IMG/VR virus record: IMGVR_UViG_3300046169_000109
Location: 4,781 to 68,780 of that record
Reading direction: 5' to 3' (one strand)
DNA: 64,000 bases
Source: a virus
The notes below the pieces were generated by a model. It had not been told where the DNA came from. It saw only the letters and a list, made by a program, of their open reading frames with translations, and did not search any database. Below, one piece after another: positions 20,829 to 42,683 of the stretch. Positions within the stretch are counted from its first letter, which is position 1. Each line of letters begins with the position of its first letter. The position numbers were made by a program, and so were the translations under genes.

Positions 20829-23803
20829 TATTCGCAGTCGCATTGAGTTTTAACGCCCATGTCTGGTCCGATGTATATACAATCTATATCATAATCGAAA
20901 GTTATGTCATCGCATGGATCAGATCCGCCCGACCCGCAATCTGCTTGGCACTCTGCGCAGCTTGAATATGTGCCCATTTGCATACCATCTTCTACACACT
21001 CACCGTCTACGCAGTTAAAAGTAGCCTCTTCTTTCCAGTCTTCGCACTCCTGGAGTGTATCGAAGTCTCCCAAGGCTGACCCTCCATCGCTTACACACTC
21101 ACAATTTTCTAATATGTACTTGTGCACGGAACCCGGGTTGTCAGCGCCGGGGCGAACGTCAACAAAGCCCGCTTTTACGGTTATGTATGCTGAATGGTCA
21201 GTTACTAAAAGAGTTAGATCCGTAGGGTTATCTAATGCGCCTCCAACAAGTTGAACCTCTCCTGCAGGCGTACCAAGTCTCTCGGCTTCTGAAGTAGTGT
21301 TTAGATGCTTAACATCCCAGCTAGTAAACCCCCAACCTTCGTTAGCCACCGCGGACACGGTGTAAGCGGATCCATTCATAAAATGTCCGTTATCATTCCT
21401 TACGAGAATACCTGGATAATATACAGAATTAAGATGCCCGTTCCTCCCACCAATTTGAATTTCCTGGGCTCCAACATTGTGCGACACACCACTTTTTTGA
21501 CCTGTAGTCCCATAGTTTCTAATTTCTTCAACGGTGATTAAACCTCCAGGATCGCTGTACCCGAGATCATCACCTTGCCAACCTTTAAACTCGTTAGAAT
21601 TAGTATTTTCCTCAGATATTTCTACGACTATATATTTACTGTTGGCGTCAGGGGTAAAGTCATCCTCCTCTTCAATTATAGATGCGTCTAAATTTGTAGG
21701 TCCTAAGTAAGGAGGTACGGGGTTGTCAGACCACATAATGTCTACTTGAGCATTCTGATTAAAGTGCAGCCCTTCTATATGCGTTCCGTAGTACCAACGG
21801 TTTGTGCTATCCCAGTAAGGATCGTTACCTGGGTTAAATGTTACTTCTTGCGGCACATAAAATTTCTCAAAATATCCTGTTGCACCAACATGATTTGTTT
21901 CTGCAGTTACATTTAAAGTAATAATGTCCCCCGCACTTGAGTTAAGAGAGTACGCTGTTAAAAACGATCCCGTACTACTAAGAGTAACATTTTCATAAGA
22001 TGCATAACCTGACTTAGATGAGAAATTATTAGTCATAACATTCTCAACACGGGCGTTGAACGGGCCAATTTTTTCGATTGCCGACAGCCCTGTAGGCCCT
22101 TCATTCGGAGCTAGTATTTCTACCGCTAAATTTGTAGGTCCGACTTCTGGAGCTAAAACTTCTGCCGCTAAGTTTGTAGGCCCTGCTTCCGGAGGTAAAA
22201 CTTCGGCGTCTAAATTTGTAGGTCCTGCTTCCGGAGGGAGAATTTCTACCTGTAAATTTGTAGGTCCAACTTCTGGAGGTAAAACTTCAGCATCTAGATT
22301 TGTAGGTCCGACTTCCGGAGGTAAAACTTCAGCATCTAAATTTGTAGGTCCGACTTCTGGAGGGAGAATTTCTGCATGTAAGTTTGTAGGTCCGACTTCT
22401 GGAGGGAGAATTTCTGCCTGTAAATTTGTAGGTCCTTCTACCGGCTCCAATAATTCAGCCAGCAAGTTTGTAGGTCCAACCTCTGGCGGGAGAATTTCAG
22501 CATATAAATTTATAGGTCCGACTTCTGGAGGTATGATTGAGGCAGTGAGTTCGACTGGTCCAACCTTTGGAGCTAAAACTTCAGCCTCTAAATTTGTAGG
22601 TCCAAACTCTGGCGGAATTATTAACGCCTCTAGATTAGTAGGTCCGAAAAACGGGGCTAGTATACGAGCTATTAAATTCCTAGGTGCCCGCAATGGGGTT
22701 CTCGGTATTAGGTCAAAAGTTTTTTTTTCCTCTGACTCTACAAAGAACCAATACATACCGGTCTGCGGAGCGTATACAGCAAAAGACTTAGTAAGATCTG
22801 TAGGGTGTTCGTGCTCCCACACACCCTTACTTTTCCAATTAGCCTGATCCTCATCTGCTCTACTTCTTAAATCCTCCGACCCACGACTTGCGGCCTCATC
22901 CTTGTATACTTGGCCATCGTGCCCTACCCAATAAGTCAAAGATCCAGATGCACGGGAAACAACTTTTGAATTTACGGCTGCTGAGAAATTTGTAGCTGGT
23001 GCTTGTTCAACACGATATCCAGTATTTGCTTGGTCTGGAGCTGGTGCATAGAGAAGATGACATCCTTTGTCCGTATGTACTACTACCTGATCTCCACGGG
23101 TTGAAAGTGCTGTTATCTTGCTCGCATTCGAACCTAAAATGTCGACAGTCGAAAGAACGCCTCTGTTATAAGTTGTATCCTCAGTACTGTAAGGAGTATC
23201 TCTATATGGAGAGGTTAACCCAGCAGGTTCTGATATGTATACGGTTAATGGTTTATCTGGATTACCTGCTGCAAAGATTGTTTTTTTAGGGCCTTGTACA
23301 AAGAACTGGCATTTTGGAAACCTCGACCATTCTTGACTGTATAAACTTTCGTCTGGAAAAACTTCAAAAGTATCGTCTGGGCCTTTACCTACAAATATCG
23401 ATTCATTACTCCCATCTCCGACGGCATAAAGTTTATTACCTATTGGAGTAATATTTGCAGGACCTTCGGTATAAAGCGATGGATCTTCAAAGATAAATTC
23501 TTCCTGTTCAGTGAAATATTCTAACTCTGTATGCTCGGTCGTTAATAGCGCTATATCGTGTACTTCATTCTGTCGGGATACAAAGACTACGGAATTCCCC
23601 AATCCATCATCAGCGGATGATATTTTATTTTGGTCGCCATCTGCGACATATTGAACATCTCCGACTTTTTTCCACACAGGACCGCTACGCAAACCGCCCG
23701 GCCCATGCGGTAAGCAACCTTCGACTAAACGAAGGGAGCCGCGATCGGCGTCATCGCGATGCGCTTCGATCCCGGTGAAGGATGGTATCCGGAAAAACCT
23801 CAC
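20828..23803 (-). CDS. tail nozzle-like N-terminal domain + 14-aa repeat array + Cys-rich C-terminus
   Basis: N-terminal FTG...D, ITAL...VV.T..G propeller-like region; GPTNL repeats. Confidence 0.7.
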   Translation of the reverse strand: MRFFRIPSFTGIEAHRDDADRGSLRLVEGCLPHGPGGLRSGPVWKKVGDVQYVADGDQNKISSADDGLGNSVVFVSRQNEVHDIALLTTEHTELEYFTEQEEFIFEDPSLYTEGPANITPIGNKLYAVGDGSNESIFVGKGPDDTFEVFPDESLYSQEWSRFPKCQFFVQGPKKTIFAAGNPDKPLTVYISEPAGLTSPYRDTPYSTEDTTYNRGVLSTVDILGSNASKITALSTRGDQVVVHTDKGCHLLYAPAPDQANTGYRVEQAPATNFSAAVNSKVVSRASGSLTYWVGHDGQVYKDEAASRGSEDLRSRADEDQANWKSKGVWEHEHPTDLTKSFAVYAPQTGMYWFFVESEEKKTFDLIPRTPLRAPRNLIARILAPFFGPTNLEALIIPPEFGPTNLEAEVLAPKVGPVELTASIIPPEVGPINLYAEILPPEVGPTNLLAELLEPVEGPTNLQAEILPPEVGPTNLHAEILPPEVGPTNLDAEVLPPEVGPTNLDAEVLPPEVGPTNLQVEILPPEAGPTNLDAEVLPPEAGPTNLAAEVLAPEVGPTNLAVEILAPNEGPTGLSAIEKIGPFNARVENVMTNNFSSKSGYASYENVTLSSTGSFLTAYSLNSSAGDIITLNVTAETNHVGATGYFEKFYVPQEVTFNPGNDPYWDSTNRWYYGTHIEGLHFNQNAQVDIMWSDNPVPPYLGPTNLDASIIEEEDDFTPDANSKYIVVEISEENTNSNEFKGWQGDDLGYSDPGGLITVEEIRNYGTTGQKSGVSHNVGAQEIQIGGRNGHLNSVYYPGILVRNDNGHFMNGSAYTVSAVANEGWGFTSWDVKHLNTTSEAERLGTPAGEVQLVGGALDNPTDLTLLVTDHSAYITVKAGFVDVRPGADNPGSVHKYILENCECVSDGGSALGDFDTLQECEDWKEEATFNCVDGECVEDGMQMGTYSSCAECQADCGSGGSDPCDDITFDYDIDCIYIGPDMGVKTQCDCE
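22072..22701 (-). repeat. 15 x 42-bp coding tandem repeat (PPEVGPTNLxAExL)
   Basis: Directly visible; one further isolated copy at about 21674-21715. Confidence 0.95.
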
Positions 23804-23848
23804 CGCCTTATACTCTCCGCTTTCTCATTGTGTAGCAATCGCTTGGCA

Positions 23849-26800
23849 TTATGAGCATTGATTAATTGTCTCCTCTACCGAGTATGTATGTGGAGTATTA
23901 TATAACAAAGCACCCATCGGGTATGTCCCTAACGTTTTAGAGGGATTATTTTGCGGATCCGCCCAACCAAGCCCGGTCCTATCCCAGGCCAAGAGACTTT
24001 TATAGTACTGTTGACCCTGATGCGCGCCTGAATAAGTCAGATTACGCAAGCTGTTATCGATGTTATCTTCTAGAATTCGAGTATCGGTTTCAAAATTAGT
24101 CATATATTTATGACCATAAAGAGAATCCCCGTATATAGCCATACTCCAACGATTCCAAGTGTATGTACCTCTACCAGCTACGAACTTATTCATTGTAGGG
24201 TCTTCCGGATCAATCGTTAGATACCTTTGTTCTCCATTTTTGCTTATATAAAGCACCCTATCCTCGTAAATTTCTTCTAAAAGCCAGACATGTTCTATAT
24301 CATTATGCAGCTTAAGATAATGAGTCTCCATGGAAATATTGGAATATTTCATAAAATGACTATATGGGGACAATCCCTTATAAGGATTATCCGTCCATGT
24401 AAGTTCAACAAGGCATGCAGGAACGGTGCCTCCAGGTGTATATGTAAACGAATTAGTTCCGTCAAATCCTTCATATGGATCAATTGTAGTATTACAAAAT
24501 AGAGGGAGGGAGGGCGGCTTTGGGGTGCATGAGTTAAATATTCCGAATGCCGAGTAATCTAGATTACCGCTTATTAGAGGATATACAGGGACTTCTTGAT
24601 TTGGATTAACTTGTGGATTTGCCCAAGTATTTCCTGAACTAGATCGATCCCAGACCGCGAGACTTTTATAGTAGTTTTGACCCGCAGGTAGATTATCCAA
24701 GCTACTGTGGGGGGAATTTTCTATGATTCGATTACCCGATTTAAAATTACTGACATATTTAAGCCCCCAGGTGGATCCCCCGAGGTGCCCCACACTCCAA
24801 TGATTCCAAGTGTATGTACCTTTTAATCCTGCGAATTTATTCATTGTAGAATCGTTCGGATCAATCGTTACAAACCTTTGTTCTCCGTTATTGTTTATAT
24901 AAAGCACCCTATCCTCGTAAATTTCTTTTAAAAACCAGTAGACATGATCATCCCATTCAGCTGAAAATTTATCAAAGTCAGGACTGATGTTTGAGTAATT
25001 AGATACACTGTTGGGGTGCGAAGTGTTGTAATCAGGATTATCCGTCCATGTAAGTTCAACAAGGCACCCCGGAATTACGCCATTAGGTATATACTCGCTC
25101 GAGCCCGCATTGTTAGTACCGTCGAATCCCAAATAAGGGTCGCGAGTAGTATTACAAAATAGAGGGAGGGAGGGCGGCTCTGAACTAGGATCAGGTGCAA
25201 TGCAATAAGCACTGACATCTCTTCCACCTGACAGGCCGAACCATCTTAGATTAATAACATCTTCACCCGCAACCGTTCCTGTGTCTCTCCGAATAATATT
25301 TTTTTGAAAAGCATACCACAAAGGGTGCGAGTTAAATATGATCCCCCTGTCTGTCGTCGTACTGTTTGGATCCTTAAGAACGCGCAACGGTTGCCCATCA
25401 TCAGTATATACATTATCTCCTGAGATTACATCCATATGATGGTCCTTGAGCTCCTGTGTTACACGGGTAACAGAACTAGCTGACTTACCCCAATAATGTC
25501 TACCATCAAAACTTTCCCTTAATGTGCTACTGTTCTTAGTTAGGTTGGTCGTCCATCCATATTCTTCGGTAAATATATGAGCGCCATAAAATCCGTAGAA
25601 TATATCACCAATTCGATTTCCCTGAGCGTCGTAGTATGGTTCAAATGTAGAAAATATAATATCGGTTGATGGATCTCTGAAATTTACTACTCCGGCTGTT
25701 AATCCATAGGAGTATGTAACTTTTGTTTCGCTATGAACTTTATGAAGTCTCCAAGATATATAATTTCTTTCTCCAAACCATTCGGTCTGCTGACTATCTC
25801 CTGGCAATACGATCCCGGTTTTTGTCTTCCACATAAGATCCCATCCCTTAGGATTCGCGGGTTTATATAAAGTTTCTATTATAGTTTCTGGGATCTTTCC
25901 AGGATTTGAGTTCCAAGTGCTTGGAAAAATACCTCCGCTAAACGCGGTTTTACCCGCACACAAAACTACAAGATTAGTATTGGTTACTGGCTCGGGTAGA
26001 TCTTCCACCGTTAAATCGGGATCGTCATTTATAGCATCCCCAAGTTCATCAAGTAGGTCGTCGTACTCGTTATCTTCTGTGCTTATTGGTTGAGTATTAG
26101 AACATCCATTAAGCGAGTTTTTTTGAAGCTCTAAACCAGAGAGAATAGATTGATCAGTTTCTCCAGGCTTAATCATTGTAACCTCTCTGATAGCTAGTTT
26201 CTGAACACCTGCAGAAGTTGTAACCGAGTAGTAGATTTGGTAAGTTTCACTGACATATGCATCACCGTTAAAAAATACATTGTCAGATGATACACTAATG
26301 GACTCCCCACCACTTTCTCTCTGTACAAATATTTTTAAATCGTAATCAGTCCCCTCAATATTATAGCCTGCGTCTTTGGTAATATGTGAACCGCTTTCTG
26401 CATAATCCACCCCTGCATATATAGGTACTGTACCGTCTTCTGGATACTCCACATATAGTCTTGGGCAGCCGTACAATTCAAGCAAGGTCGGGCCTGCTTC
26501 TATAATAACCGTTCTAGTAGCAAACCCTATACGCTTACTATTGGATACCGCGTAGTAGAGGATAGAATAATTTCCTGTTGGTTGGGACGACCAACTATTT
26601 TCCTCTACAGAGGACACAGTTTTAACAGCTAAATTTGACCCCTCGCTACTTAGCTCGTTTGGACGACTAAGGGCATACGCACCTGGATCTACAAATTCTT
26701 GGCCCTGAATAATAGTTTCTACACTATCTCCATACAGATAGACTATAGGTTCTGGCGAATCATCTAAAGAACCCGCATCAGATACTGTAACTAGCCTAGA

Positions 26801-26977: not shown

Positions 26978-26978
26978 A

Positions 26979-31113: not shown

Positions 31114-31117
31114 ATAC

Positions 31118-31870
31118 TTACCAACCAGGTCTCTTGGTTAAACGGAGTGAACCTTTATGCTTTTGAGGTGAGACCAAAGTCCTAAGTCTTTTCCTAGCCT
31201 CCTCCCCTATTCGCATTAAGACTTCACGATTGTCTCCGTTGTACCTTGGATCCGCGAGCATCTTAGCCTGTGCGATAGGAAATAATATATCCCATACAGT
31301 ATCAGACGGCATGCGCGGTTCATCGGTATCAAGCTCTAGGTCGGAAGGTAATACATTAGCAAAGAATTCAACCTCATATGCTTTATCAGGAACTGGATAA
31401 AGGTATAAGCGAGGGATAACTTTTCCATCATCCCCCTGATTCCGGCTATCTAAATAGTACCAGATTGGACGACCGACCTCAGGTTCATTATCTTTAAATT
31501 GTGGAAAGTTTAAACCTCTCCCGCTCGGTGCTCGAAAGTCCCAACTAAATATTGATCTAGCTCGAATCTCATCCTCCGGTCCTTTCATTGGAGAGAGCGG
31601 TCCCTCGCCAAGAAGCTCAGGAATCTTATCAACAGATACAATATTTGATGATAGTTCTACCCCTGGAACACCTTCTGGAAATGATACTTCGAATCGTTTT
31701 TGAGCCCACATAGGACGCTTTCCATCAATAGGAAGGTAGCATTCGCGATATGCTTGATTTACGCACATCCCGACACGCTTCTGGTCAATAGGTGGGAGAT
31801 CAGAAACTTCGCTCGCACCCAGCATGGACGCAAGCTGATCTTTTAGATCTAAATATGTAATGGCGGCCAT
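31118..31870 (-). CDS. head-tail adaptor protein
   Basis: TYLDL...VNQAY, G.P..Y, LYPVPDKAY, D.DEP.MP motifs. Confidence 0.75.
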   Translation of the reverse strand: MAAITYLDLKDQLASMLGASEVSDLPPIDQKRVGMCVNQAYRECYLPIDGKRPMWAQKRFEVSFPEGVPGVELSSNIVSVDKIPELLGEGPLSPMKGPEDEIRARSIFSWDFRAPSGRGLNFPQFKDNEPEVGRPIWYYLDSRNQGDDGKVIPRLYLYPVPDKAYEVEFFANVLPSDLELDTDEPRMPSDTVWDILFPIAQAKMLADPRYNGDNREVLMRIGEEARKRLRTLVSPQKHKGSLRLTKRPGW

Positions 31871-32332: not shown

Positions 32333-33784
32333 CTATTGCGCGAGGGACAAGCCAGGAACCTGACGAACAACCTCGATGAGTTGTACGGAAGGAACGCGAC
32401 CACGTGTGTCCTTGCGAGCAGCCATACCATAGACGGACTGAACACCAACAGCGCTCAAATGAGCTTCGTTGCCGGAGTTAGCGAAGTCGTCGTAATGGAA
32501 GATTTGCTCACCGTAGATCTTGCCTTTAGCGAAGTACATAGCGTCTTTACCCATCGCAAGTGCGTATCCGATAGGAGTTCCGATCGAATTAGCTTGTACG
32601 AACAAGGAACCTTCTGCGAATGCGTCGCCAGTCTTGGTTCCGAATCCTGCGTCGGTCAAAGTACCGGTGCTGCTAACAGTAGCTGCAGATGCTTCATAGC
32701 TGTACAATTTGTACTCACCGCTTTGTGCGTCGATACCTAGAACATAATGAGTTCCGGAATCTACTGCGAAGGTTTCTCCTCCACCACCAGGGATGTTAAT
32801 GGATACACCACGGAAGTTAGCCATGTAGTCTCCGTCAGTTCCACCAATTCCACCGGTCGCGTCAGCGATTGCAGCGAAGTTGTAGAAGGTAGGAAGTAAT
32901 GGAGAACCTTGGCGTCCACGAGCGGTGTCGATAAGAACATTATGGTTAGCAATTATGTTGTTGTCCCATTTAGCATAGCTTCCGGAAAACAATTTGTTCT
33001 CTGGCCCACGGCTGTCGGCTTGAGTAATTGCTTCCAAGTAATCGGGATCAGAACGCAATGGGCGTAAGCATGCGTCTGGTGCGAAGAACAAGTAACCAGG
33101 AATTTCTTGGTTTTCGTCTCCACCAGTGTTCATTGGCTCAGCGCCATTGGCGATAAGTGCTTGCTTAGCTTCTTGGATGATGTCGGTGCTTAATCCGTCA
33201 ACATATTTAAGCTCGCTGCCTGCTCCTGTTCCGTATCCGGAAAGAACATTTGAAGATCCTTTAGCGGTGCAGATTTGACGCAATGCATATTGAATTTGGT
33301 CTTGCTCGGTACGGGACATCCACTCGGACATGACTTCAGCTGAAAGCTGGTCAATGGTCTTACCGGTGAATCTCATAAGTTTCAGGACTTGGGTCCAGGA
33401 AACAGCGTGACGAACGAGATCGATTTCAACGGAGAATGTTCCGAAATCAAGTGTGTCAGTAGCATTCTTTAAGATTTCTTCACCACGTACACCTTGTCCA
33501 CGGATAGGAGCAACAGTTGTGAAAGTAATCTTGTCAGATCCGCCTGCGCTAAGATCGCGTTTTTCAGTGATTGGTTTACCGCTTCCTTCGCCGCCGATGA
33601 ACTTTGCGAATACGTTTTTCTCTCTAGCGTCGCGAGTTACAAGCTCGGACCAGAGGCGTGAGCGCAAGTCGGAATTAGGACCATCAAGAAGATCTTGATA
33701 GGAAGTAGTGTTAGTTACCAAATCAACATTAGCAGCTGGGCTACTGAATGGGTTTGGAGATGCTGGGATTTGTTTTTCAGCCAT
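32333..33784 (-). CDS. major capsid protein (N4 gp56/DUF4043-like)
   Basis: DL..GGSDKITF....I.GQGV.GE..L...RHAV pattern, strong codon bias, downstream of the scaffold. Confidence 0.85.
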   Translation of the reverse strand: MAEKQIPASPNPFSSPAANVDLVTNTTSYQDLLDGPNSDLRSRLWSELVTRDAREKNVFAKFIGGEGSGKPITEKRDLSAGGSDKITFTTVAPIRGQGVRGEEILKNATDTLDFGTFSVEIDLVRHAVSWTQVLKLMRFTGKTIDQLSAEVMSEWMSRTEQDQIQYALRQICTAKGSSNVLSGYGTGAGSELKYVDGLSTDIIQEAKQALIANGAEPMNTGGDENQEIPGYLFFAPDACLRPLRSDPDYLEAITQADSRGPENKLFSGSYAKWDNNIIANHNVLIDTARGRQGSPLLPTFYNFAAIADATGGIGGTDGDYMANFRGVSINIPGGGGETFAVDSGTHYVLGIDAQSGEYKLYSYEASAATVSSTGTLTDAGFGTKTGDAFAEGSLFVQANSIGTPIGYALAMGKDAMYFAKGKIYGEQIFHYDDFANSGNEAHLSAVGVQSVYGMAARKDTRGRVPSVQLIEVVRQVPGLSLAQ

Positions 33785-33822: not shown

Positions 33823-34887
33823 CTACCTTCTTGGCTGTGCTCCTCCAGCGGATCCTAATAGCGAATAAATATCTTTAGTATTCATATTGGGAAGCTGTTG
33901 GAGTAAACCTTCGGAAGTAGCTGGAGCGTTTACAGGTTGTGCCGTAGTCCCAGTCGTCAATACTCTGGCTTGTGTACCCATTTGCGGAGCGGTTTGCTGA
34001 GGAATCTGAGGAGCTGGAGCGGGCTCGGGCTGAGCTTGTTGCGCCTGCTGCATCGGATTAATCGAAGCAAATTCGCTGGCTATGAGTTCTGGCCATCGTG
34101 GTGATTCAAAGACTGCGGCGTAGTCGGGGTCGGACTGAGCCTGCGATACGAAATCGTCGAACTGCTTACGATAAACGGATTGTTTATCCTGCAACTGAGG
34201 AAATCGATTGTAGACTCGGTCACGGCTTTCCATCGCTTTAGAACGATGGGAGTTATAAACTTGCTGGTCTCTTTCTTGCTCCATTTGCTGTTTACGGAGA
34301 GTCAAGTTTTGCAGCTGAAGTTCTTTTTTCATGATATCACGCTGAAGCCTAAGTGCTTCGGTGGTCTCAAGATCTTCCGCTGCTTTCTCAACTGATCCTT
34401 CAAGCTCCAGAATGGATGCGCGAATTTCGTCAGCTTGTTTGTCTATACCATTGATTGGGTCGGGCTCGGTCGCCTCGACTTGCTCCTGATTTGGTGAAAT
34501 AGGTTGAGATACAGGCTCGGCAGTTTGTCCGTAAATTATTCGGGATGCGTCGGCGAAGGATCCTCCAAAGCCCTCAGACCTATAAAGGTCGATGACTTGT
34601 TGGTCTAACTCGTTACGGGGACGGATTCGTCTCTTCCCGAGTTTTTCTTCTTCGGTCTCTTCAATCTCGGACTCAGGGGCTGCTGCCTCCGCTTCCGGCT
34701 GAAGTTCTTCAACTTGCGACTCTTGGCCTTGGGTCTCCGGGATTTGCTCCTCGGCTACGGGCTGCGGGTCGTTAGTCTCCGGCGTTACTCCTAATGCATT
34801 GCGAATATCGTCGGTTGACGCGTCTTCGATGCTGAACTGTTCCTCTTCAATTTGCGGGGAGTTAACCTCCGCGGTAGATGTTTCCAT
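33823..34887 (-). CDS. capsid scaffolding protein
   Basis: Acidic E/Q-rich coiled coil directly upstream of the capsid gene. Confidence 0.7.
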   Translation of the reverse strand: METSTAEVNSPQIEEEQFSIEDASTDDIRNALGVTPETNDPQPVAEEQIPETQGQESQVEELQPEAEAAAPESEIEETEEEKLGKRRIRPRNELDQQVIDLYRSEGFGGSFADASRIIYGQTAEPVSQPISPNQEQVEATEPDPINGIDKQADEIRASILELEGSVEKAAEDLETTEALRLQRDIMKKELQLQNLTLRKQQMEQERDQQVYNSHRSKAMESRDRVYNRFPQLQDKQSVYRKQFDDFVSQAQSDPDYAAVFESPRWPELIASEFASINPMQQAQQAQPEPAPAPQIPQQTAPQMGTQARVLTTGTTAQPVNAPATSEGLLQQLPNMNTKDIYSLLGSAGGAQPRR

Positions 34888-35074: not shown

Positions 35075-35077
35075 AAC

Positions 35078-35676: not shown

Positions 35677-35681
35677 AGATG

Positions 35682-35713: not shown

Positions 35714-35753
35714 CGTTCAAGTCATGAATGTCTGGTAGTGTAGGGAGGAAGTT

Positions 35754-36875
35754 TTATCCGAGAGCGGCTACAAACTCTGCCAAGGAACCAAGGTTGTCAG
35801 ATCCGATGAATACATCGTTAACTTTGATGTCCATAAGCTCAGCGCTTGAGTCGTCACCAGAGATGTCGGTCGAGGAAGCAGTAGCTGAAGTTTTGTAACA
35901 TACGAATTTGTCTTCACCTTCGTCGAATACCAATGCAACATTGTCCTCGGAGCTTCCGCGCTCCATGATCAATCCAACATCGTTTCCGTTGTTAGCGCTG
36001 TCTGCAGCTCCGTCATTAAGAAGCATGATCGAGTCCTTAACTTGGGAGTTAACAGTTTCGAGACTGGTGGTGGTACCTTGAACGGTAAGGTTACCGCTAA
36101 GAACTAAATCAGTTCCGTTAACAGCTCCGGTAAAGCTTGCACCAGATAAGTTTGCTTTTGCAGCGTCTAATGCAGCGTCAGCGTTTGAACGAAGAGTAGC
36201 TTCACCAGATACAGCAGTCTGACGATCAGCGATTTCAGATGCAAGGTTAGTAGTAAGAGTAGCGTCAGCAGCAATACGAGCGGCTTCTTCAGTGTCAATT
36301 TCACCTTGAAGTGCGGTATCAGCAGATGCACGTGCGGTAGCTTCACCAGTTACTGCAGTCTGGCGGTCGGAAATTTCCGATGCGAGATTGGTAGTAAGAG
36401 TAGCGTCTGCTGCAATACGAGCAGTTTCTTCAGCGTCAACATTACCTTGAAGTGCGGTATCAGCTGCAGCTCTTGCGGTAGCTTCACCAGTTACTGCGGT
36501 CTGACGATCAGAGATTTCAGATGCGAGATTAGTAGTAAGAGTAGCGTCAGCTGCAATTCTTGCTGCTTCTTCGGTATCAATTTCTCCTTGAAGAGCGGTA
36601 TCAGCCGAGGTTCTTGCGCTAGCTTCAGAAGATACAGCTGCGATACGCGCGGTTTCCTCGGAGGAAATAGCGGTAGCATTTGCTGCTTCAGCAGTACGAG
36701 CTGCGGAAGCTTCTGCGTCGATGTTAGCTTGTAAGGTTGTGTTTGCTGATCCACGAGCCGCTGCTTCAGCAGCGATTGCTGCTTCTCTTGCGGTTGCTTC
36801 AGCCTCGACATTAGCTTGAACGCCGTCGACCTTAGTTTTTACGGATGCACCGATTTGTGAAAGAATGTTTGACAT
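35754..36875 (-). CDS. coiled-coil tail fibre
   Basis: About three 47-aa (18+11+18) Ala-rich repeats; GNLTVQGTTT...D..LN...D.GL..ERG fibre module. Confidence 0.8.
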   Translation of the reverse strand: MSNILSQIGASVKTKVDGVQANVEAEATAREAAIAAEAAARGSANTTLQANIDAEASAARTAEAANATAISSEETARIAAVSSEASARTSADTALQGEIDTEEAARIAADATLTTNLASEISDRQTAVTGEATARAAADTALQGNVDAEETARIAADATLTTNLASEISDRQTAVTGEATARASADTALQGEIDTEEAARIAADATLTTNLASEIADRQTAVSGEATLRSNADAALDAAKANLSGASFTGAVNGTDLVLSGNLTVQGTTTSLETVNSQVKDSIMLLNDGAADSANNGNDVGLIMERGSSEDNVALVFDEGEDKFVCYKTSATASSTDISGDDSSAELMDIKVNDVFIGSDNLGSLAEFVAALG

Positions 36876-36946
36876 AGTATGTATATATTCTGGGTTATTT
36901 TTGGTTTAGTTAAAAAAGGGTTTTAGTTTCCTCGCCCTTAACTTTG

Positions 36947-37043
36947 TGCTCTTATAATCTTACCTCTTGCCCGCTTTCTCAATCGGTTGGTCAACTTTTC
37001 CAACCGGTCGCAAGAAGCGCTCATGACCGTTACTAATCGGAAA
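36947..37043. promoter_or_regulatory. back-to-back late-type promoters
   Basis: CCAACCGATTGAGA (-, from 36990) and CCAACCGGTCGCAA (+, from 37000). Confidence 0.65.
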
Positions 37044-37225
37044 TGGTTGCAAAAGAATTTCGATATCTTTCACCAAGAATCATTAGGGAGCGTATGGATG
37101 TATCATCCGGAACGGTTCGTCGATGGGCGAAACAATATGGATGGGAACGAAAACTTGTTAATTCTCGTGTCATTCGATATCTCGCAAACGATGTAGAAAA
37201 TAGTCTGGGGGTATCCTTTGAGTAA
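37043..37225 (+). CDS. MerR/Xis-like winged HTH protein
   Basis: YLSP......DVSSGTVRRWA...R.IRY...DVE. Confidence 0.7.
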   Translation: MVAKEFRYLSPRIIRERMDVSSGTVRRWAKQYGWERKLVNSRVIRYLANDVENSLGVSFE

Positions 37226-37424
37226 CCTGGCCAGCGCGATTGGTTCCGCGGTTCGTGTCTCAAATGAGCACAACCGTGGATTGGTTAAAGTAGTAGATAC
37301 AGAAGCAAATATACTTACCCGGGAGAATGATCCCATTGGCTCGATCGCTCTATCGAGCGACACCAATAAGCTATATATCTATCTCGGATCCAGCTCCTGG
37401 GGAGCGATCGCTATTACGGTTTAG
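37218..37424 (+). CDS. minimal tail-module protein
   Basis: Shares DTE.NI..R..D..G......DT.KLYI..G..W with 40408..40920. Confidence 0.7.
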   Translation: MSNLASAIGSAVRVSNEHNRGLVKVVDTEANILTRENDPIGSIALSSDTNKLYIYLGSSSWGAIAITV

Positions 37425-37690
37425 ATAGGCTCTTCTTGAGGCTTTGCCCAGGAAGGATCGTGATCTACAAGCTCGGATGAATCAAAATGCTGGTCGCATT
37501 TCCATTTTCCTTCAGTTATAACCGGAAAAATAAATAGCCCATAATCTGCATGTTCTGAATTATCAATCATGCGAGATTCTGCATACCTAACAGTTCCTGC
37601 ACTGTCTGGGATAGAAAGAAGAGATTTTACTTCCAGTTCTTTTGCAGAGAATTCTTCTGGGGTGTTAAGTAATTTATATTTTGTTGCCAC
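37421..37690 (-). CDS. LamG-partner protein 1
   Basis: Paralogue of 39287..39544. Confidence 0.75.
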   Translation of the reverse strand: MATKYKLLNTPEEFSAKELEVKSLLSIPDSAGTVRYAESRMIDNSEHADYGLFIFPVITEGKWKCDQHFDSSELVDHDPSWAKPQEEPI

Positions 37691-37720
37691 AGTATTTAAG
37701 GTTGGAATTTATGTTAAGAT

Positions 37721-39274
37721 TTATATGTATAGTAATGGATTAACCCTAGCGGTTGGTTGATTTGCTGCCGTTGATTGCGTTGCATGATTTCCATTTCCGG
37801 ATGCGTCAGTAATTTGAGATATTCCGGTCTGTCCATCGGTTAAGCTGTCATCTTCTCCCATGCGGAGATATGCAACAGGGCTTAAGCTTAAATCATTTAC
37901 AATATGAGCTCCGCGAGTTGCGGCTAGAGAGGATACCTCGGATGCGGATAAGGCAGTGTTGAAAATAGCTGCGTCATCTATATCGCCGACAAAATAGTTA
38001 TAACCAGCCGTTGCACCTATAATGAGGTCGTGGGCAGTAGCATTTATAGAGATTCCCGTAAACGAATCTTCAGGGACTCCATTAACATAGAACTGAGCGG
38101 TACTTCCTGAAACAGTAACAGCAACATGATACCATGTACCCGTTGCTAATGTTGTAGTTGTATTGTATACCCAAACACCTCCTGAATGGCCTAAACCAAC
38201 CTGACCACTAGAATTGTTGATTATAAATTGGTAATTCATGGAACCGCCTACCTGTCGCTTTGTATATATAGCGTTGTAGCTGGTTGTTGCTGTTCTATTC
38301 ACCCAAGCGGACAAAGTTATATCCCCCGAAATGTTAACAGAACTATTTTGAGATACGCTTAAATAGTCGTTGCCACCATCAAAGCTAAGCGATGTAGTAG
38401 ACAGGGCATGTGCTTTGAATGTAGGCTGGCTACTTGCAGTTCCTTGAGTTGCATGATTTCCATTTCCGCTGGAATCAGTAATGGTTGCGATGGATCCGCC
38501 AGCCGAGGCTGAATCTTCGTCCCCCATTCTCCAATAGCCTTTAAGATTGGATGTTCGGTCGGTATTGTATGATGATGCAGATTTTAAACTTGTAGGCTTA
38601 CCGTTTGGAGCAGTTCCGTTGTAAATTTTTGCTACATCGGGGGTGGATAGAGCAGTATTAAAGATTGCGCAATCATCTAGAAGACCTTTAAAGGTGCTAG
38701 CTCCTACTCCTGAACCAACACCACCCCATTTTGGAGTGCCGCTTAAAGAGTAATTATTGCTATCCGAACCAGTCGCTACACTTGATCCGTTCAAATATAA
38801 AGTAGCGGAACCGCTTGATCGGGTGTAAACAACATGATACCATTGGTTCGTGTTTAGCGTTGTTTCGTAGGTTACTATTCTACTACTTCCAGCCCAAATA
38901 TACAGTTTATATCCGGCATTTGGACTGATAAACAACCCGGGTAGTAAGTCTCCATCACTCGGTCTAAAGTCCACCACTGATCGGTAGCCTGAAATTACCT
39001 CAGGATTAAACCACGCACTAAAGGAAAAATCAGAAGTTCCAAAAGAAAAATCTGTAGAAGCTGGCACACTTAAATGATCACCAGCACCATCAAAGCTTGC
39101 GCCCCAGCGGTTTTCAAAGGCGACCGCGCCGGTGCCGTCGGAATCGAGCTCGATCCATGCGCCTGCGGTTGCATTCCAGACAAGCATCTTATTTGTGCTA
39201 GTCTCGAAATATGCTTTTCCGTCGGCGTGAGAACTGCCGGACGGGCGGTTATCTGTTGTTTGAAGTGTTGCCAT
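37721..39274 (-). CDS. double LamG/ConA-like receptor-binding protein
   Basis: FDG..D.L, SAW, WYHV, LY.NG, D.AIFNTALS, YWRMGD x2. Confidence 0.9.
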   Translation of the reverse strand: MATLQTTDNRPSGSSHADGKAYFETSTNKMLVWNATAGAWIELDSDGTGAVAFENRWGASFDGAGDHLSVPASTDFSFGTSDFSFSAWFNPEVISGYRSVVDFRPSDGDLLPGLFISPNAGYKLYIWAGSSRIVTYETTLNTNQWYHVVYTRSSGSATLYLNGSSVATGSDSNNYSLSGTPKWGGVGSGVGASTFKGLLDDCAIFNTALSTPDVAKIYNGTAPNGKPTSLKSASSYNTDRTSNLKGYWRMGDEDSASAGGSIATITDSSGNGNHATQGTASSQPTFKAHALSTTSLSFDGGNDYLSVSQNSSVNISGDITLSAWVNRTATTSYNAIYTKRQVGGSMNYQFIINNSSGQVGLGHSGGVWVYNTTTTLATGTWYHVAVTVSGSTAQFYVNGVPEDSFTGISINATAHDLIIGATAGYNYFVGDIDDAAIFNTALSASEVSSLAATRGAHIVNDLSLSPVAYLRMGEDDSLTDGQTGISQITDASGNGNHATQSTAANQPTARVNPLLYI

Positions 39275-39286
39275 GGTCTAGAGGGG

Positions 39287-39544
39287 TTATTTGCTTATCA
39301 ACCAATCAGGGTCGAAATCAATTAATGAGCTAGAGTCAAAATGTTGTGAGGTTTTCCATTCGCCTGTCATGACTACTGGCATTATAAACTTACCAAATTC
39401 TATGTGATCTGGATTGTTTACCGCGGCAGAGCTTGCGTAAACGGTATTACCTTTATCATCAGGTAAACCTAGAGCAGTCATAATCTGAGAATGCTTTGAA
39501 GAAAAAGATTCTTCTGAATCGAGAAGTATATATTTTTTATGCAT
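39287..39544 (-). CDS. LamG-partner protein 2
   Basis: Paralogue of 37421..37690. Confidence 0.75.
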   Translation of the reverse strand: MHKKYILLDSEESFSSKHSQIMTALGLPDDKGNTVYASSAAVNNPDHIEFGKFIMPVVMTGEWKTSQHFDSSSLIDFDPDWLISK

Positions 39545-40398
39545 TATACTAAAATTGTTTCTCCGGTTAAGTCTAAGTATGAAGGCTTATCAGTGACTGA
39601 TGCAGCAGATAGAGCGGTGCCAGTTGCAGGCGATGCGTTAGGTACTGAGGCAATATCATCTCCAGAGGTCACAGACTCCCCGTCTCCAAACCTAGCGTAC
39701 ATAGATGGGCTATAATCGCTTAAGCTGGAAGGTTTACCGCTGCCGTATATGTCAGAAGCATCCTGCGCACTAAGAACAGAAGTAAAAAATGCAAACTCAT
39801 CGGCACACCCATTAAAGTATGTACCTGCAGAACCTGCTCTGAAAGCTGTTTCAAAATACCAGTCGTCATTGTCTGCGTAAGTACTTGCTGCGGGTTGTCC
39901 GTTAACATATAGCTTTAAATCAGTTCCGTCTCCAGTAATCGTGATGTTGTACCAAGAACCATTTGTAAATGATACAGGTGAAACCATACGTTGATAAGTT
40001 CTGCCTGATCCTCCGCCTTGACCTGACGGCCACATTCTTATTGAAACTGCGGACGAGTCGAAATACAAAGCATATAAATTTGTACCGTAACCCCAAATAT
40101 AGTGGTCAGTGCCTGACATAGGTTTAACCCATGTCGAGAAACTTTTGTTCCCGGATATCGTGTACGACCCGCCATTAGGTACAAAGTACGAGTTATTAGT
40201 TAAGTCTACACCTAAACTATTTTCGAAACCTTCTGCCGCACCATCGCTTGTAAATTTTTTCCAGCGATTTATCCCGCTAGCATCGGCGTTAGTACAAAGA
40301 TAAAGGGAGTTATTACCCGTATTAAGAACAAGATCCCCGTCAATTGGGCTAAGACCGGCAATTGCGGTTTCGTTCGCGTATGTATTTATATCGCTCAT
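39544..40398 (-). CDS. LamG/ConA-like receptor-binding protein
   Basis: STWVKP, WYNI, LYVNG, DEFAFF..LS, YARFGD. Confidence 0.85.
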   Translation of the reverse strand: MSDINTYANETAIAGLSPIDGDLVLNTGNNSLYLCTNADASGINRWKKFTSDGAAEGFENSLGVDLTNNSYFVPNGGSYTISGNKSFSTWVKPMSGTDHYIWGYGTNLYALYFDSSAVSIRMWPSGQGGGSGRTYQRMVSPVSFTNGSWYNITITGDGTDLKLYVNGQPAASTYADNDDWYFETAFRAGSAGTYFNGCADEFAFFTSVLSAQDASDIYGSGKPSSLSDYSPSMYARFGDGESVTSGDDIASVPNASPATGTALSAASVTDKPSYLDLTGETILV

Positions 40399-40407
40399 TC
40401 TAAAGTA

Positions 40408-40920
40408 TTATGCTTCGGGTTGATATTCGTGCCATGCGGATCCGTCGAAGATGTATAGCTTGTCGGTATCCGTTCCGTACATCACCGTACCAGTAGCATC
40501 TCCTTCGCGCGACCGGATGTTTGATTCTGTATCGCCAGAAATATTAAGCGTTAGTGCAGCTGCTATGCTGTCCGCTTGAATGTTTGCAATGTCGGATAAT
40601 ATCCAGACTCCTGCATAATAATATACTGCGCTGGTATCGCTAGCTACTGCAACGGTACCTTTCGGGTCGCCACTACGCGCTTGGATATTTTCTGCGGTAT
40701 CAAAGATCGAAACGGTAACATCAGCAGTACTTGCTACAAAGTCTCCATAATTTCCAATAGCAGATTCAAGAGTAGTTACTTGACTGCTAGTCGCTACATG
40801 GTTTGCGGCCGTAGGTTCGGGGACAATTAAAGGACCGGTAAGAGTACCACCGGCAAGATTTAATTTTTCTCCGAGCTTTCCGCTTAAAGAGGTTCCTAAG
40901 GCTTCTAAAATGCTGGGCAT
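40408..40920 (-). CDS. tail fibre adaptor with two docking-type modules
   Basis: KLNLAGGTLTG.L...P....H.AT fibre motif; two DT..NI..R.GD..G modules. Confidence 0.75.
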   Translation of the reverse strand: MPSILEALGTSLSGKLGEKLNLAGGTLTGPLIVPEPTAANHVATSSQVTTLESAIGNYGDFVASTADVTVSIFDTAENIQARSGDPKGTVAVASDTSAVYYYAGVWILSDIANIQADSIAAALTLNISGDTESNIRSREGDATGTVMYGTDTDKLYIFDGSAWHEYQPEA

Positions 40921-40973
40921 GTTCTATATATTCCTTGTTATGTAAGTCTTCTCAATCGGATGGATGAACTTTT

Positions 40974-41279
40974 TTACGGTACTTGAACTGCAGAAATATT
41001 TGAGGGGCCTGCGGCTGGTTTCGGACCGTTCAGCGCATCCAAAAATGATCCAAGGTCCAGACTGTCAGCAACTTCCTTCAAAGTATCCATCTCTTCAGGT
41101 GCGCCAGATGTAATGTTTTCCACGTTTGTAGTGTTAGTCTCAACTTTTTCTTCAAGCTCAACCATTTCAGATTTTAGTAAATATAAATCTTTTACTCGGC
41201 CGACAGAAGATCCGGAAGATGTTATAGTATTCTCGTTATCGTTCTCTCCGGCGGAATTAAATATTTTTATGTCTCCCAT
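40974..41279 (-). CDS. short tail fibre-associated protein
   Basis: GAPEEMDTLKEVAD fibre motif; C-terminal PAAGPSNISAV. Confidence 0.7.
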   Translation of the reverse strand: MGDIKIFNSAGENDNENTITSSGSSVGRVKDLYLLKSEMVELEEKVETNTTNVENITSGAPEEMDTLKEVADSLDLGSFLDALNGPKPAAGPSNISAVQVP

Positions 41280-41285
41280 AGGGAA

Positions 41286-42164
41286 TTACTCTCCTTTAGG
41301 AACTCGGTGCCACTCAGCAGTGTCACTTTTATATATAAACAAGTACGGGACATCTTTAGCGTAAGCAATATGTCCACTCTCTTCGGTGGCTGCGCTAAGC
41401 AGATCCTCTTGTGTGTCGTAAATATCTATATTAAGCGTAGCTTTACCCGCAGATAGACCTGTTGGGCCATTAGCCGGAGCATTAACGCTTGCGCCTAACC
41501 CAGTGGGGCCGTTAGCCGGAGCATTAACGTTTGCGGCAAGGGTTGTTGGGCCGCTGGACGGAGCAGTAAACACTTCAGCAGCGTTTAAGCCTGTAGGACC
41601 ATTAGCCGGAGCATTAACGCTTGCGGCTAGAGTTGTTGGGCCGGAAACAGGTGCGTCTGGAATTCCTTCAAATGCATTTAAGCCTGTAGGACCGTTAGCC
41701 GGAGGAAGTAATTCAGCATCTAACACCGTTGGGCCATTAGCCGGAGCGTTGACGGATGCATCTAAGCTAGTCGGACCGTTAGACGGAGCGACAATTGATG
41801 CGGCTAAAGAGCTAGGGCCAGAGACCGGAGCGGGAAGAACTTCGGCAGCTAAAAGATTGGTAGGGCCAGAGACCGGAGGAACAATAGGTCCAAAGGTAGG
41901 GATCTCCGCACCAGGTTTTCCAACAACGCTTGAGCGATAAACCCTTCCATATGTATCCTTAAATCCATCCCCATCCGAATCAAAGTATACCGCTTTTAAA
42001 CTACCCCCAAAGCGCTGATTCTGATCGTGCTCACGCTCAAGACTTTTGAACTTTTTAGAGTCCCGCTTAAGTGCAGTTCGATTAATTGAACCTGCAACTG
42101 CCCTGGCCTTTCGATGATCCGAACGGTTAGCTTTAGCCTTCTGAACTTTTTTAGAATAGCTCAT
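41286..42164 (-). CDS. tail protein with 10 GPTxL repeats and a C-terminal docking-type module
   Basis: APANGPTGLxAS repeats at about 41440-41880; GHIAYAKD...LFIY...W. Confidence 0.75.
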   Translation of the reverse strand: MSYSKKVQKAKANRSDHRKARAVAGSINRTALKRDSKKFKSLEREHDQNQRFGGSLKAVYFDSDGDGFKDTYGRVYRSSVVGKPGAEIPTFGPIVPPVSGPTNLLAAEVLPAPVSGPSSLAASIVAPSNGPTSLDASVNAPANGPTVLDAELLPPANGPTGLNAFEGIPDAPVSGPTTLAASVNAPANGPTGLNAAEVFTAPSSGPTTLAANVNAPANGPTGLGASVNAPANGPTGLSAGKATLNIDIYDTQEDLLSAATEESGHIAYAKDVPYLFIYKSDTAEWHRVPKGE

Positions 42165-42331
42165 TTTAAAGGCGCAGGCATACCAGGTTTCGACCCTTGG
42201 CTTTCGGCCTTCGACTGTAGATCAACGGGTATAGGCCGAGCTACTAAAGTAATAGGTTTCGGGTCGTTAGCCTTGGGCTCGCGGGCAGGTACCGAAGTGA
42301 CCTTGGAGCCCCATCTTGAGACGAGGGGCAT
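42161..42331 (-). CDS. hypothetical Pro-rich 56-aa protein
   Basis: Translated by hand; ATGA-coupled. Confidence 0.5.
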   Translation of the reverse strand: MPLVSRWGSKVTSVPAREPKANDPKPITLVARPIPVDLQSKAESQGSKPGMPAPLK

Positions 42332-42344
42332 AGGTCAAAGGGTG

Positions 42345-42683
42345 TTAGGTTACGGGAAGCATGAAGACGGCTGTGTCGTCTTGAACTTTAAAGCCGCCTT
42401 GGTTTTTTGCTGCGATACCGAAGTGATAATTTACCGCAGACCCAGTCCCAACTATTGAATGAGCTGATGTTATGGAAGTCTTAGTAAGATCAGTGACGCT
42501 TTCAATAAGATCTAATCCTTGAGAAGATGCGCTTGCTCCGCCGTGAATTGCGTCGAGCTTAGCTTGAAGAGCTGCTGCGTCGGAGAAGTGACCTGATGAG
42601 GTACCGTCACACACGTATACTTCGTAAGAATCGATATCGGTTGAACCTGTTACAGGTGTCCAAGTTACATTTATATTAGCCAT
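42345..42683 (-). CDS. fibronectin type III-like protein lacking strand A
   Basis: Starts at INVTWTP (B), then IDSYEVY (C) and NYHFGIAAKNQGG (F). Confidence 0.7.
   Translation of the reverse strand: MANINVTWTPVTGSTDIDSYEVYVCDGTSSGHFSDAAALQAKLDAIHGGASASSQGLDLIESVTDLTKTSITSAHSIVGTGSAVNYHFGIAAKNQGGFKVQDDTAVFMLPVT

Follow-up and report, generated by a model that had tools for sequence, protein, structure and literature searches.

An FN3-like protein lacking its A strand, and tail-protein peptides that may complete it in trans, in a phage genome

A complete FN3 domain is a seven-strand beta sandwich in which strands A, B and E face strands C, C', F and G, with a core tryptophan in B and tyrosines in C and F. 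What, then, is the state of an FN3 domain whose gene begins at strand B? The window analyzed here (64,000 nucleotides; positions 4,781 to 68,780 of IMG/VR record IMGVR_UViG_3300046169_000109) encodes such a protein, the 112-aa FN3-deltaA (42345..42683, minus strand; first residues MANINVTW). Its source is an uncultured marine phage. Three tail proteins of 991, 292 and 101 aa carry 14-residue peptides, or tags (P-x-x-G-P-[ST]-x-L-x-A-x-V). We propose, with a probability of roughly 55% and on computational evidence, that FN3-deltaA is an acceptor "bead" completed by the tags, which would act as A strands in trans. Each peptide would pack beside strands B and G of a single FN3-deltaA, with its L, A and V side chains inserted into the open core. 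With one domain per repeat, a disordered, proline-rich chain would be turned into a row of FN3 beads on the tail. A donor-strand arrangement of this kind had been put forward in a sequence-only reading of the window; docking and co-occurrence are now supported in silico, and the building of a fibre is what we infer from them. A literature search returned no description of such a strand-less FN3 and tag system in phages, and we know of no natural FN3 domain completed in trans.

FN3-deltaA is FN3-like but incomplete. The Pfam fn3 profile matches it with E=3.4e-4 and 21.2 bits, below the 25-bit cut-off, and residues 4-99 align to profile positions 16-75 of 84. Since the alignment begins at position 16, the first 15 positions are absent; these we take to be strand A, and position 16 strand B. 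The homologue in genome G007 aligns from profile position 15 (18.4 bits), and one cluster of homologues carries a precomputed PF00041 match. The AF2 model of FN3-deltaA contains strands at residues 2-4, 19-25, 57-63, 75-77, 84-94, 97-99 and 106-111 and a helix at 36-47. Strands B, C, E, F and G, together with W8, Y20 and Y86, were assigned; no strand lies ahead of the INVTW strand, and the helix occupies the position of C'. Profile and model thus agree with the earlier claim that the gene product starts at strand B. Foldseek returned weak FN3-domain matches (TM 0.4-0.58, E >= 0.08), and a search of PDB sequences with the FN3 profile found no relative. Given the absent strand A, the helix in place of C' and the weak Foldseek matches, a complete FN3 domain was rejected. 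The lone chain folds in the model at a pLDDT of 94.8, yet does so without an A strand; this value is not a measure of stability, although it suggests that the protein may be stable without a partner.

The short form is the normal one for this family, as judged from its homologues. There are 47 of these, 106-121 aa long, and M1, A2, I4 and N5 are invariant in all 28 that were aligned. Each of the 37 FN3-deltaA ORFs from 30 loci and the window aligns from its own residue 1-5. In 16 of 16 related loci examined, the frame upstream of the FN3-deltaA methionine closes within 0-33 codons, and none of the 16 has an A-strand-like peptide in frame there. A profile search of 1.84 billion representatives matched 43 proteins. 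All 17 short matches (80-120 aa) align from their own residue 1-3, the long multi-FN3 proteins match the profile only in part (mostly positions 66-109), and a fused form with an A strand was not found among the 43. Relatives also have proteins of 333-619 aa with the strand-less FN3 as their N-terminal domain, so this FN3 looks like a general N-terminal docking module for which the tags would be the docking sites.

The tags are confined to few genes. The strict motif GP[TS]x[LIV]x[AV] has 24 six-frame matches in the 64-kb window, every one in the three tail-protein genes to which the sequence-only reading had assigned such peptides, and TRF detects a 42-nt period at 22116-22647 and 41458-41643. 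The 991-aa nozzle-like tail protein (20828..23803, minus strand) has a hub-like N-terminal part (aa 1-365) besides a tag array and Ig-like and Cys-rich display parts. Its array (22058..22702, minus strand) had been described as 15 tandem copies; 14 are clean copies of PPEVGPTNLxAE[VI]L with a period of exactly 14 residues (G at 387 through 569), and the copy ahead of them is degenerate (APRNLIARI). An isolated tag, PPYLGPTNLDASII, was found as claimed (aa 696-712, G at 701; 21668..21718, minus strand) and is conserved in G001 and G002 as VAPYLGPTNLQASI. Homologues of the 991-aa protein occur in G001-G005. An ESM Atlas search with aa 1-375 gave viral clusters and, as a lead only, PF11134 Phage_stabilise with a score of 0.93; PF11134 represents the P22 gp10-like podovirus nozzle or tail hub. 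An SU10-type adaptor gene is found near the nozzle-like gene (31118-31870). The N-terminal part had no match in Pfam or PHROGs, and the 991-aa protein had none among PDB sequences.

The 292-aa "string" protein (41286..42164, minus strand) has a basic N-terminal module with DSDGDG, ten tags (aa 96-246) and a small C-terminal beta domain (aa 245-289). The tags (41427..41879, minus strand) follow xAPxxGP[TS]xLxA[SE]V at spacings of 14, 16 or 17 residues, and relatives of the protein have 9-14 tags. In the 101-aa small fibre-like protein (40974..41279, minus strand), the last 11 residues, GPSNISAVQVP, form a single tag (nt 40977-41024 with the PKPAA lead); its homologues in L013, L016, L017 and L018 are 85-86 aa long and lack the tag. 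The ten copies and the one terminal copy are the same counts as first reported.

The surrounding genes required a correction. A 56-aa ORF (MPLVSRWG...; 42161..42331, minus strand) sits between the FN3 gene and the 292-aa gene, and its stop overlaps the 292-aa ATG. It repeats, without any tag, the N-terminal module found at the head of tag-bearing proteins in relatives; L005 (435 aa) and L013 (254 aa) have proteins with homologous starts. Similarly, a 67-aa ORF (MRKYKNGK...; 43031..43234, minus strand) is a short, untagged counterpart of post-portal proteins that bear tags in relatives (L012, 235 aa; L016, 489 aa with RCC1 repeats; L017, 239 aa). The FN3 gene had been credited with its own late-type promoter. 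The palindrome CAACCGGTTG (42745..42754) indeed lies 62 nt upstream of the FN3-deltaA ATG, where it overlaps the end of the 96-aa gene, and it is enriched: allowing at most one mismatch, 8 matches occur where 1.14 would be expected, and none of 100 shuffles gives as many. In related loci, too, FN3-deltaA genes are preceded by this motif. It is best described as a promoter-like motif of the late arm.

The tags resemble natural A strands. In multi-FN3 proteins, A strands present in cis read PATPTGLSVS... or PSVPANLSGS..., and the spacing from their L to the W of strand B in nine such starts is 14 in six, 15 in two and 16 in one. When the tag of the 101-aa protein is set ahead of the start of FN3-deltaA, the spacing from tag I to FN3 W is 14, the commonest cis value. 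Tags would also serve singly: besides the one that closes the 101-aa protein, there is one in L013, where a 97-aa ORF ends with ...GPNNVTVTEL 5 nt ahead of the MKDLKITW of an FN3-deltaA protein.

Docking was modeled for the repeats of the 292-aa protein only, with three copies of FN3-deltaA and residues 125-170, which span three repeats. One FN3-deltaA was placed on each repeat, as the sequence-only reading had anticipated, with ipSAE values of 0.81, 0.82 and 0.81 compared to 0.00, 0.00 and 0.01 for three controls. The pLDDT of the partner was 90, and runs shared at least 99% of contacts. Of 80 solved complexes, 58 reach the mark used by the tool, as do 2 of 110 mismatched pairs; these counts are only a rough guide here because the complex was run with its own alignment and three copies. 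In all three copies, FN3-deltaA residues 2-11, 88-102 and 104-111 are in contact, which the AF2 strand list assigns to strands B and G and the F-G hairpin; by topology, the B/G surface is presumably where strand A would be expected in a full FN3 domain. Residue 99 contacts partner residues 141 and 144 in copy 2 and 155 in copy 3, a shift of 14 residues, and partner residues 125-167 are in contact overall. It may be that the predictor fills in an FN3 fold that it has memorized; the result therefore speaks for compatibility and not for affinity.

If the tags serve FN3-deltaA, the two should be found together, and this expectation of the earlier reading agrees with the related genomes. Both FN3-deltaA and arrays are present in four of five clade genomes (the window, G001, G003 and G007). 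The complete genome G006 has neither, the one genome from which joint absence is drawn, and its nozzle is unbroken: a single 650-aa protein passes from the nozzle N-terminal part directly into PSKYKAYIYSE... with no array. By comparison with it, a 226-aa ORF of the window (19996..20676, minus strand; KYKAYCF) is the counterpart of the C-terminal half of the unbroken nozzle protein. Among 58 loci anchored on the adjoining 96-aa gene, FN3-deltaA lies directly downstream in 42, and arrays occur in 35 of these 42 versus 1 of the 16 others. In seven FN3-positive partial loci (L011, L056, L059, L063, L064, L066 and L069), two regular expressions found no array; these loci are on truncated contigs or have their nozzle genes beyond the DNA covered. 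Because every locus comes from a single phage clade in which gene order is conserved, the co-occurrence is not phylogenetically independent.

The repeats could instead fold by themselves into an autonomous shaft, for example a homotrimeric beta-spiral or a beta-helix, with the FN3 protein an unrelated decoration or tail protein. The fibres of adenovirus and reovirus are homotrimeric shafts, and triple beta-spiral repeats are approximately 15 residues long with a G/P turn and hydrophobic positions. The phage tags have a strict period of about 14 residues, a conserved G-P and alternating hydrophobic residues, and the arrays have an N-terminal anchor on one side and C-terminal globular domains on the other (in relatives, for example, RCC1 and further propeller-like domains), the position expected of a fibre shaft. 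The sequence-only reading had considered an autonomous repeat fold as well. The AF2 monomer of the 292-aa protein gives no confident fold for the repeat region (pLDDT 29-37 from a 6-row alignment; 54-63 for the C-terminal domain), although an obligate oligomer would also appear unfolded as a monomer. Some tags cannot form a shaft: the single ones at the extreme C-termini of the 101-aa protein and the L013 97-aa ORF, and the pair in the L005 435-aa protein. Since the repeats of the 292-aa protein also contain few large hydrophobic residues, FN3-deltaA is predicted to dock on them confidently and in register, and arrays and FN3-deltaA are jointly present or absent in five of five genomes, a shaft is improbable.

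It is likewise unlikely that slippage of a segment made of an FN3 linker plus an A strand gave rise to the repeats as flexible, proline-rich spacers that look like A strands and nothing more. In that case the FN3 protein would be stable in the absence of strand A and have another target, such as the capsid, a tail part or a host glycan. Such a history would accommodate the confident AF2 model of FN3-deltaA alone and the disorder of the repeat region. It would also accommodate the drift in nozzle copy number among close relatives (15 in the window, 18 in G001 and 22 in G002), as expected of slippage-prone spacers, and the absence of one 42-nt unit from an RNA-library contig (one contig, depth 2.7). 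However, spacers usually conserve composition, not an exact motif and period. The P, G, P, L and A of the tags are invariant, yet are encoded by 2-5 synonymous codons each, while position +5 takes nine different residues in 14 units. A period of about 14 residues is retained in diverged arrays, and the motif with its period is kept even between phages whose FN3 proteins share only ~30-50% identity with the search query. By these patterns the motif is under selection. Spacers would also leave unexplained that the start of FN3-deltaA is its most conserved part, and that the predicted complex scores 0.81 against at most 0.01 for the controls.

Docking limited to single tags (the 101-aa tail and the isolated nozzle tag), or a role for FN3-deltaA as a transient assembly chaperone with no permanent bead fibre, is very unlikely: the split-domain geometry is at its most exact in single tags at C-termini (101-aa protein, L013 junction) and the G007 array has a period of 12 residues, tighter for bead packing and perhaps too short for full occupancy, but all three adjacent repeats are occupied in the prediction and a conserved period of about 14 residues would be purposeless under sparse occupancy.

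Completion of FN3-deltaA by the tags thus remains the preferred reading. In the virion, FN3-deltaA would bind the tags, occupy all repeats and stiffen the chains into fibres, with FN3-deltaA in high copy number and fibre length controlled by repeat number. The function would be the display of adhesive Ig-like domains with a reach tuned by the number of repeats. A broader and more tentative suggestion is that of plug-and-socket appendages, in which any strand-less-FN3-headed protein could clip onto any tag-bearing protein. The nozzle and anchor arrays might then act as scaffoldins for beads of 90-120 aa or cargo of 333-619 aa, and slippage (15, 18 and 22 copies), together with gain and loss of tags, might change the surface rapidly. 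The proteins are small and appear soluble, and the idea is therefore directly testable.

Among known systems, chaperone-usher pili are the obvious comparison. A pilus subunit lacks its C-terminal G strand, which is donated by the N-terminal extension of the next subunit, and a chaperone and an usher are needed. The phage system may work like this complementation. However, the strand missing from FN3-deltaA is the N-terminal A strand. Every pilus subunit both accepts and donates to form a homopolymer, whereas the phage acceptors would be free monomers and the donors stand in tandem on one scaffold chain. Membership in the chaperone-usher class was rejected because the missing strand is N-terminal and the donor strands belong to arrays in other proteins; general Pfam or PHROGs scans of late-arm ORFs brought no chaperone- or usher-like gene to notice. 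Donor-strand complementation is also reported for archaeal threads and cannulae (PMC9715654; bioRxiv 10.1101/2024.12.30.630787). Common to donor-strand systems and to the phage proposal is an incomplete Ig-like or beta-sandwich subunit finished by a strand of another polypeptide, in a very stable non-covalent assembly.

Cellulosome scaffoldins offer repeated docking sites (cohesin-dockerin) to modules that head varied cargo, and the FN3-deltaA-headed proteins of 333-619 aa in relatives fit this scaffold-cargo logic. The folds are unrelated and the binding mode differs, the docking site of scaffoldins being a folded domain and not a 14-residue peptide. Ig-like and FN3 decorations of the T4 Hoc type are small domains on the outside of virions, probably for weak adhesion. 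Known phage decoration domains are complete, and are either part of a structural protein or bound to the capsid lattice; to our knowledge, none is completed by a peptide array.

The tandem beta-zipper formed by bacterial fibronectin-binding proteins with FNI modules (PMC4412574) is similar in that disordered repeats add one strand to each small beta-sandwich module like beads on a string. Repeats disordered alone and one domain per repeat are found in the phage by prediction only, and the phage modules are unlinked. In the beta-zipper, complete type-I domains are joined in a single host protein and gain an additional strand, whereas the phage modules are type-III-like proteins encoded individually by the virus itself and left incomplete, with the strand filling a missing position. 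The beta-zipper is there a contact between adhesin and host; the phage system, if real, would be an assembly device. The Foldseek match PDB 4m6a is described as an FN3 scaffold with a swapped N-terminal strand, which indicates that an A strand can come from another chain; it is an engineered consensus protein forming a reciprocal dimer, and neither a natural split nor an array.

If correct, the proposal would extend donor-strand complementation from pili to viruses. Besides covalent multi-domain chains and homo-oligomeric fibres, there would be a third kind of virion appendage, in which numerous copies of a deliberately incomplete domain, encoded by a gene of its own, give structure to a disordered chain. 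Repeat number would set both length and valency, and any protein headed by a strand-less FN3 could be displayed. The small peptide-domain pair would also be a natural counterpart of engineered split-domain tags, of use in protein engineering.

The window encodes a 112-aa fibronectin type III (FN3)-like protein (42345-42683, minus strand) that would be completed in trans by peptide tags borne on tail proteins, and the tandem arrays of these tags would serve as strings bearing one FN3 bead per repeat. Judged on sequence comparison and structure prediction, this is the best account of the data, with a probability of roughly 0.55. Docking of truncated FN3 subunits on tag strings had been proposed in a sequence-only reading of this DNA; the predicted complex and the co-occurrence of the two parts argue in its favor, on evidence that is wholly computational.

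The FN3-like protein starts at strand B, as that reading had claimed. The Pfam fn3 profile matches only from its position 16, and the AF2 model (pLDDT 94.8) has no strand ahead of INVTW, consistent with a missing A strand. Searches of structure libraries yielded nothing beyond weak FN3 matches. A mis-called start is ruled out by the 47 homologues, all 106-121 aa in length, and by M1, A2, I4 and N5, which are invariant among 28 aligned homologues. An upstream start or recoding that supplies the A strand is ruled out as well, since in all 16 related loci examined a stop interrupts the reading frame a few codons before the start. Synonymous changes occur among the first codons of the FN3 genes, indicating that conservation is at the protein level. 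The spacer upstream of the gene measures 5 nt in L013, 2 nt in L015 and 29 nt in L016 (loci of related phages). Searching 1.84 billion representatives with a profile returned 43 proteins; the 17 counted as short all match from their first residues, and the long multi-FN3 proteins have partial profile coverage, mostly of the last strands.

A profile of distant members recovered 30 loci with strand-less FN3 genes of the types MANIN..., MAKNIKLSW, MAKDIDLTW, MATVNLNW and MKDLKITW; by these sequences, the family extends beyond the type found in the window. Among 37 strand-less FN3 ORFs counted in these loci and the window, every match begins at residue 1-5. Two matches added by a later census begin at residue 27 and residue 51, one in an ORF called from an upstream start codon and the other a partial match. 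Proteins of 333-619 aa in L013, L014, L015 and L016 have a strand-less FN3 as their N-terminal domain, as expected of an attachment module. Another locus, L063, has three such genes at 10329-14192, encoding a 641-aa fusion and proteins of 103 aa and 119 aa; no array was found by the tag patterns used within the fetched 20 kb, and no nozzle in its 81%-complete record.

The tags are present in the three proteins in which they had been described. The 991-aa nozzle-like protein (20828-23803, minus) contains 14 clean copies, one degenerate copy and one isolated copy, the 292-aa protein (41286-42164, minus) contains 10, and the single copy in the 101-aa protein (40974-41279, minus) forms its last residues. 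In a six-frame translation of the window, all 24 matches to a strict tag motif fall inside these genes and none elsewhere. Positions P(-3), G(0), P(+1), L(+4) and A(+6) do not vary over the array units, each being encoded by several synonymous codons, and position +5 is hypervariable. We infer that the L-x-A-x-V pattern is the one expected of a beta strand buried on one face. Complete natural FN3 domains among the profile matches open like the tags (PATPTGLSVS..., PSVPANLSGS...), and the spacing from Leu to the conserved Trp in complete domains is 14 in six of nine, 15 in two and 16 in one. With the 101-aa tail placed ahead of the FN3 start, the Leu-to-Trp-type spacing is 14, so that the gene split, by our own strand placement, sits at the A/B turn.

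A period of about 14 residues is maintained even in strongly diverged array units. The nozzle arrays have 15 copies in the window, 18 and 22 in the related genomes G001 and G002, and a different flavor, PGxVxGLxA, in more distant nozzles. The nozzle-like protein of genome G007 (locus L099, 7610-12028) carries tags at a 12-residue period (PGAPSGISALAQ), followed directly by a strand-less FN3 gene and then by a protein of 698 aa that bears PGVPSNISAV tags. In L013, L016, L017 and L018 the homologue of the 101-aa protein measures 85-86 aa and has no tag. In L013, a 97-aa ORF terminates in ...GPNNVTVTEL 5 nt ahead of MKDLKITW of the next gene; this junction is ruled out as a recoded A strand, being in a different frame from the FN3 gene. 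By these comparisons, tags are gained and lost as units. Two long antisense ORFs, of 263 aa (22056-22847, plus) and 145 aa (41503-41940, plus), lie across the two arrays, one on each, and are periodic at the array lag; they are a by-product of the repeats and probably not genes. One RNA-library contig (X11, depth 2.7) omits 42 nt at 41691-41734, exactly one repeat of the 292-aa array, which is weak evidence for copy-number variation in the population.

Docking of the FN3-like protein on the repeats is seen in structure prediction. Modeled alone with AF2 and a 6-row alignment, the repeats of the 292-aa protein have pLDDT values of 29-37; the sole part of the protein that is modeled is a small beta domain at the C-terminus. 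When three FN3 copies were predicted on residues 125-170 (three repeats) of this protein, one of the three tag carriers, the ipSAE values were 0.81, 0.82 and 0.81, in keeping with the proposed docking; the controls scored 0.00 with either of two unrelated partners and 0.01 when an unrelated protein replaced FN3. Of 80 solved complexes, 58 reach the mark of the multimer tool, as do 2 of 110 mismatched pairs; for this type of job these counts are a rough guide only. Partner pLDDT in the complex is 90, and contact agreement between runs is at least 99%. Predicted contacts involve residues 2-11, 88-102 and 104-111 of each FN3 copy and shift by 14 residues from copy to copy. Neither the FN3 profile nor the 991-aa protein has a sequence relative in the PDB, thus the predicted complex was not copied from a solved one. 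The high score may reflect the predictor's knowledge of the complete FN3 fold.

The two parts also occur together, within the one clade from which the comparative evidence is drawn. Loci found through the 292-aa family have the strand-less FN3 gene alongside in 12 of 12 cases, five of them new. With the neighboring 96-aa gene as a neutral anchor, FN3 lies just downstream in 42 of 58 loci, and arrays are present in 35 of the 42 versus 1 of the 16 others; these loci are partial contigs of related phages and the counts are not independent. Among whole genomes, both parts are found in the window, G001, G003 and G007, and neither in G006, which is rated complete, giving five concordant cases, one of them a joint absence, and 0 discordant. 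G006 is scored as negative subject to its 459-aa protein (MAQSRIRLTF...), which resembles a strand-less FN3 by eye, yet has no Pfam or profile match. The G007 homologue was missed by the genome search with the A2 profile and found by the local A1+A2 profile and by Pfam.

An autonomous oligomeric shaft built from the arrays is unlikely: it would be hard to reconcile with tags that occur singly at C-termini and with FN3 and arrays being either both present or both absent. It is about equally unlikely that the repeats are plain spacers that bind nothing. Real docking that is sparse or transient seems less likely still. Completion of FN3 by tags, with one bead per repeat, is retained as the preferred account.

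The source IMG/VR viral record (68,780 bp, of which the window is bases 4781-68780) is rated 100% complete. Its late arm lies on the minus strand and contains, in order of transcription, a 3973-aa protein, the portal (43241-45268; phrog_1216) and, directly after it, a 67-aa ORF (MRKYKNGK..., 43031-43234). A 96-aa protein, the FN3-like protein, a 56-aa ORF (MPLVSRWG..., 42161-42331), the 292-aa repeat protein and the 101-aa protein follow, and then a 170-aa protein, the LamG-type fibre proteins, a coiled-coil fibre, a 354-aa protein (33823-34887) that belongs to no known family, the capsid protein (32333-33784; phrog_334), an SU10-type adaptor (31118-31870) and four large tail proteins, the nozzle-like protein last. 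Among 50,697 GenBank phage records, megablast (10.3 kb) found no cultured relative and tblastn no match to the portal or FN3 protein; the sole match of the capsid protein to a cultured phage is weak (Paracoccus phage, 30% identity over 19% of the query). A host scan of genome contigs gave a single, uninformative match to one 2.6-kb MAG contig. PHROGs has no match for the FN3, 292-aa or 991-aa proteins.

Tag-bearing proteins of the clade have three kinds of basic N-terminal module in common and differ in their C-terminal domains, one of which is an RCC1 propeller. In relatives, the start of the 67-aa ORF heads proteins of 97-503 aa with tags and domains such as this propeller. The 56-aa ORF, hidden by an ORF cut-off of 60 aa, is a tag-less version of the N-terminal module of relatives' tag-bearing proteins; this ORF overlaps the start of the 292-aa gene with its stop, and at the DNA level it is about 80% conserved, also in comparisons with loci of far more diverged FN3. 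The 180 nt between the FN3 and 292-aa genes have no Rfam match, and a conserved structured RNA is ruled out there because the region is this ORF. The window's nozzle-like gene looks split when compared with that of G006 (L093/L094), a single protein of about 650 aa whose N-terminal part runs directly into sequence equivalent to the window's separate 226-aa ORF; in the window (19996-23803, minus) the break between the two is where the array and display domains are found.

Two other features were noted on the minus strand of the fibre region. The motif G-T-I/V-x-Y-x-x-D-x-x-x-L-Y-I-F/Y-D-G-S/T-x-W recurs at the C-terminus of the 292-aa protein (41286-41430), in two copies in the 170-aa protein (40408-40920) and at the N-termini of two LamG fibre proteins (39544-40398 and 37721-39274). 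In the 292-aa protein it is a small beta domain in AF2 (pLDDT 54-63), and it may be a fibre-to-fibre joining module. A 373-aa fibre protein (35754-36875), conserved among relatives, has three coiled-coil-like repeats of 47 residues (141 nt). The palindrome CAACCGGTTG and its one-mismatch variants have 8 matches in the window versus 1.14 expected, including 42745-42754, 31903, 34920, 36980, 37001 and 59318, several just upstream of late genes; the copy that precedes the FN3 gene doubles as coding sequence for the conserved ...TG-stop end of the 96-aa protein. The FN3 gene and other parts of 40300-44300 are covered by contigs from four RNA libraries of four studies; such contigs cannot rank genes and may include DNA carry-over. 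The promoter-like palindrome and these contigs do not establish high FN3 expression.

In the titles and abstract openings retrieved for FN3, Ig-like, tail fibre, capsid and virion contexts, no phage virion built by donor-strand or strand complementation was found. The proposed system would work like donor-strand complementation of pili and archaeal threads, and like the tandem beta-zipper of fibronectin-binding adhesins (PMC4412574), without being a member of either. The points that set it apart are that no chaperone or usher was noticed among the ORFs read, that the missing strand is N-terminal, and that the donor strands would be arrayed on a scaffold and the acceptors would be free monomers.
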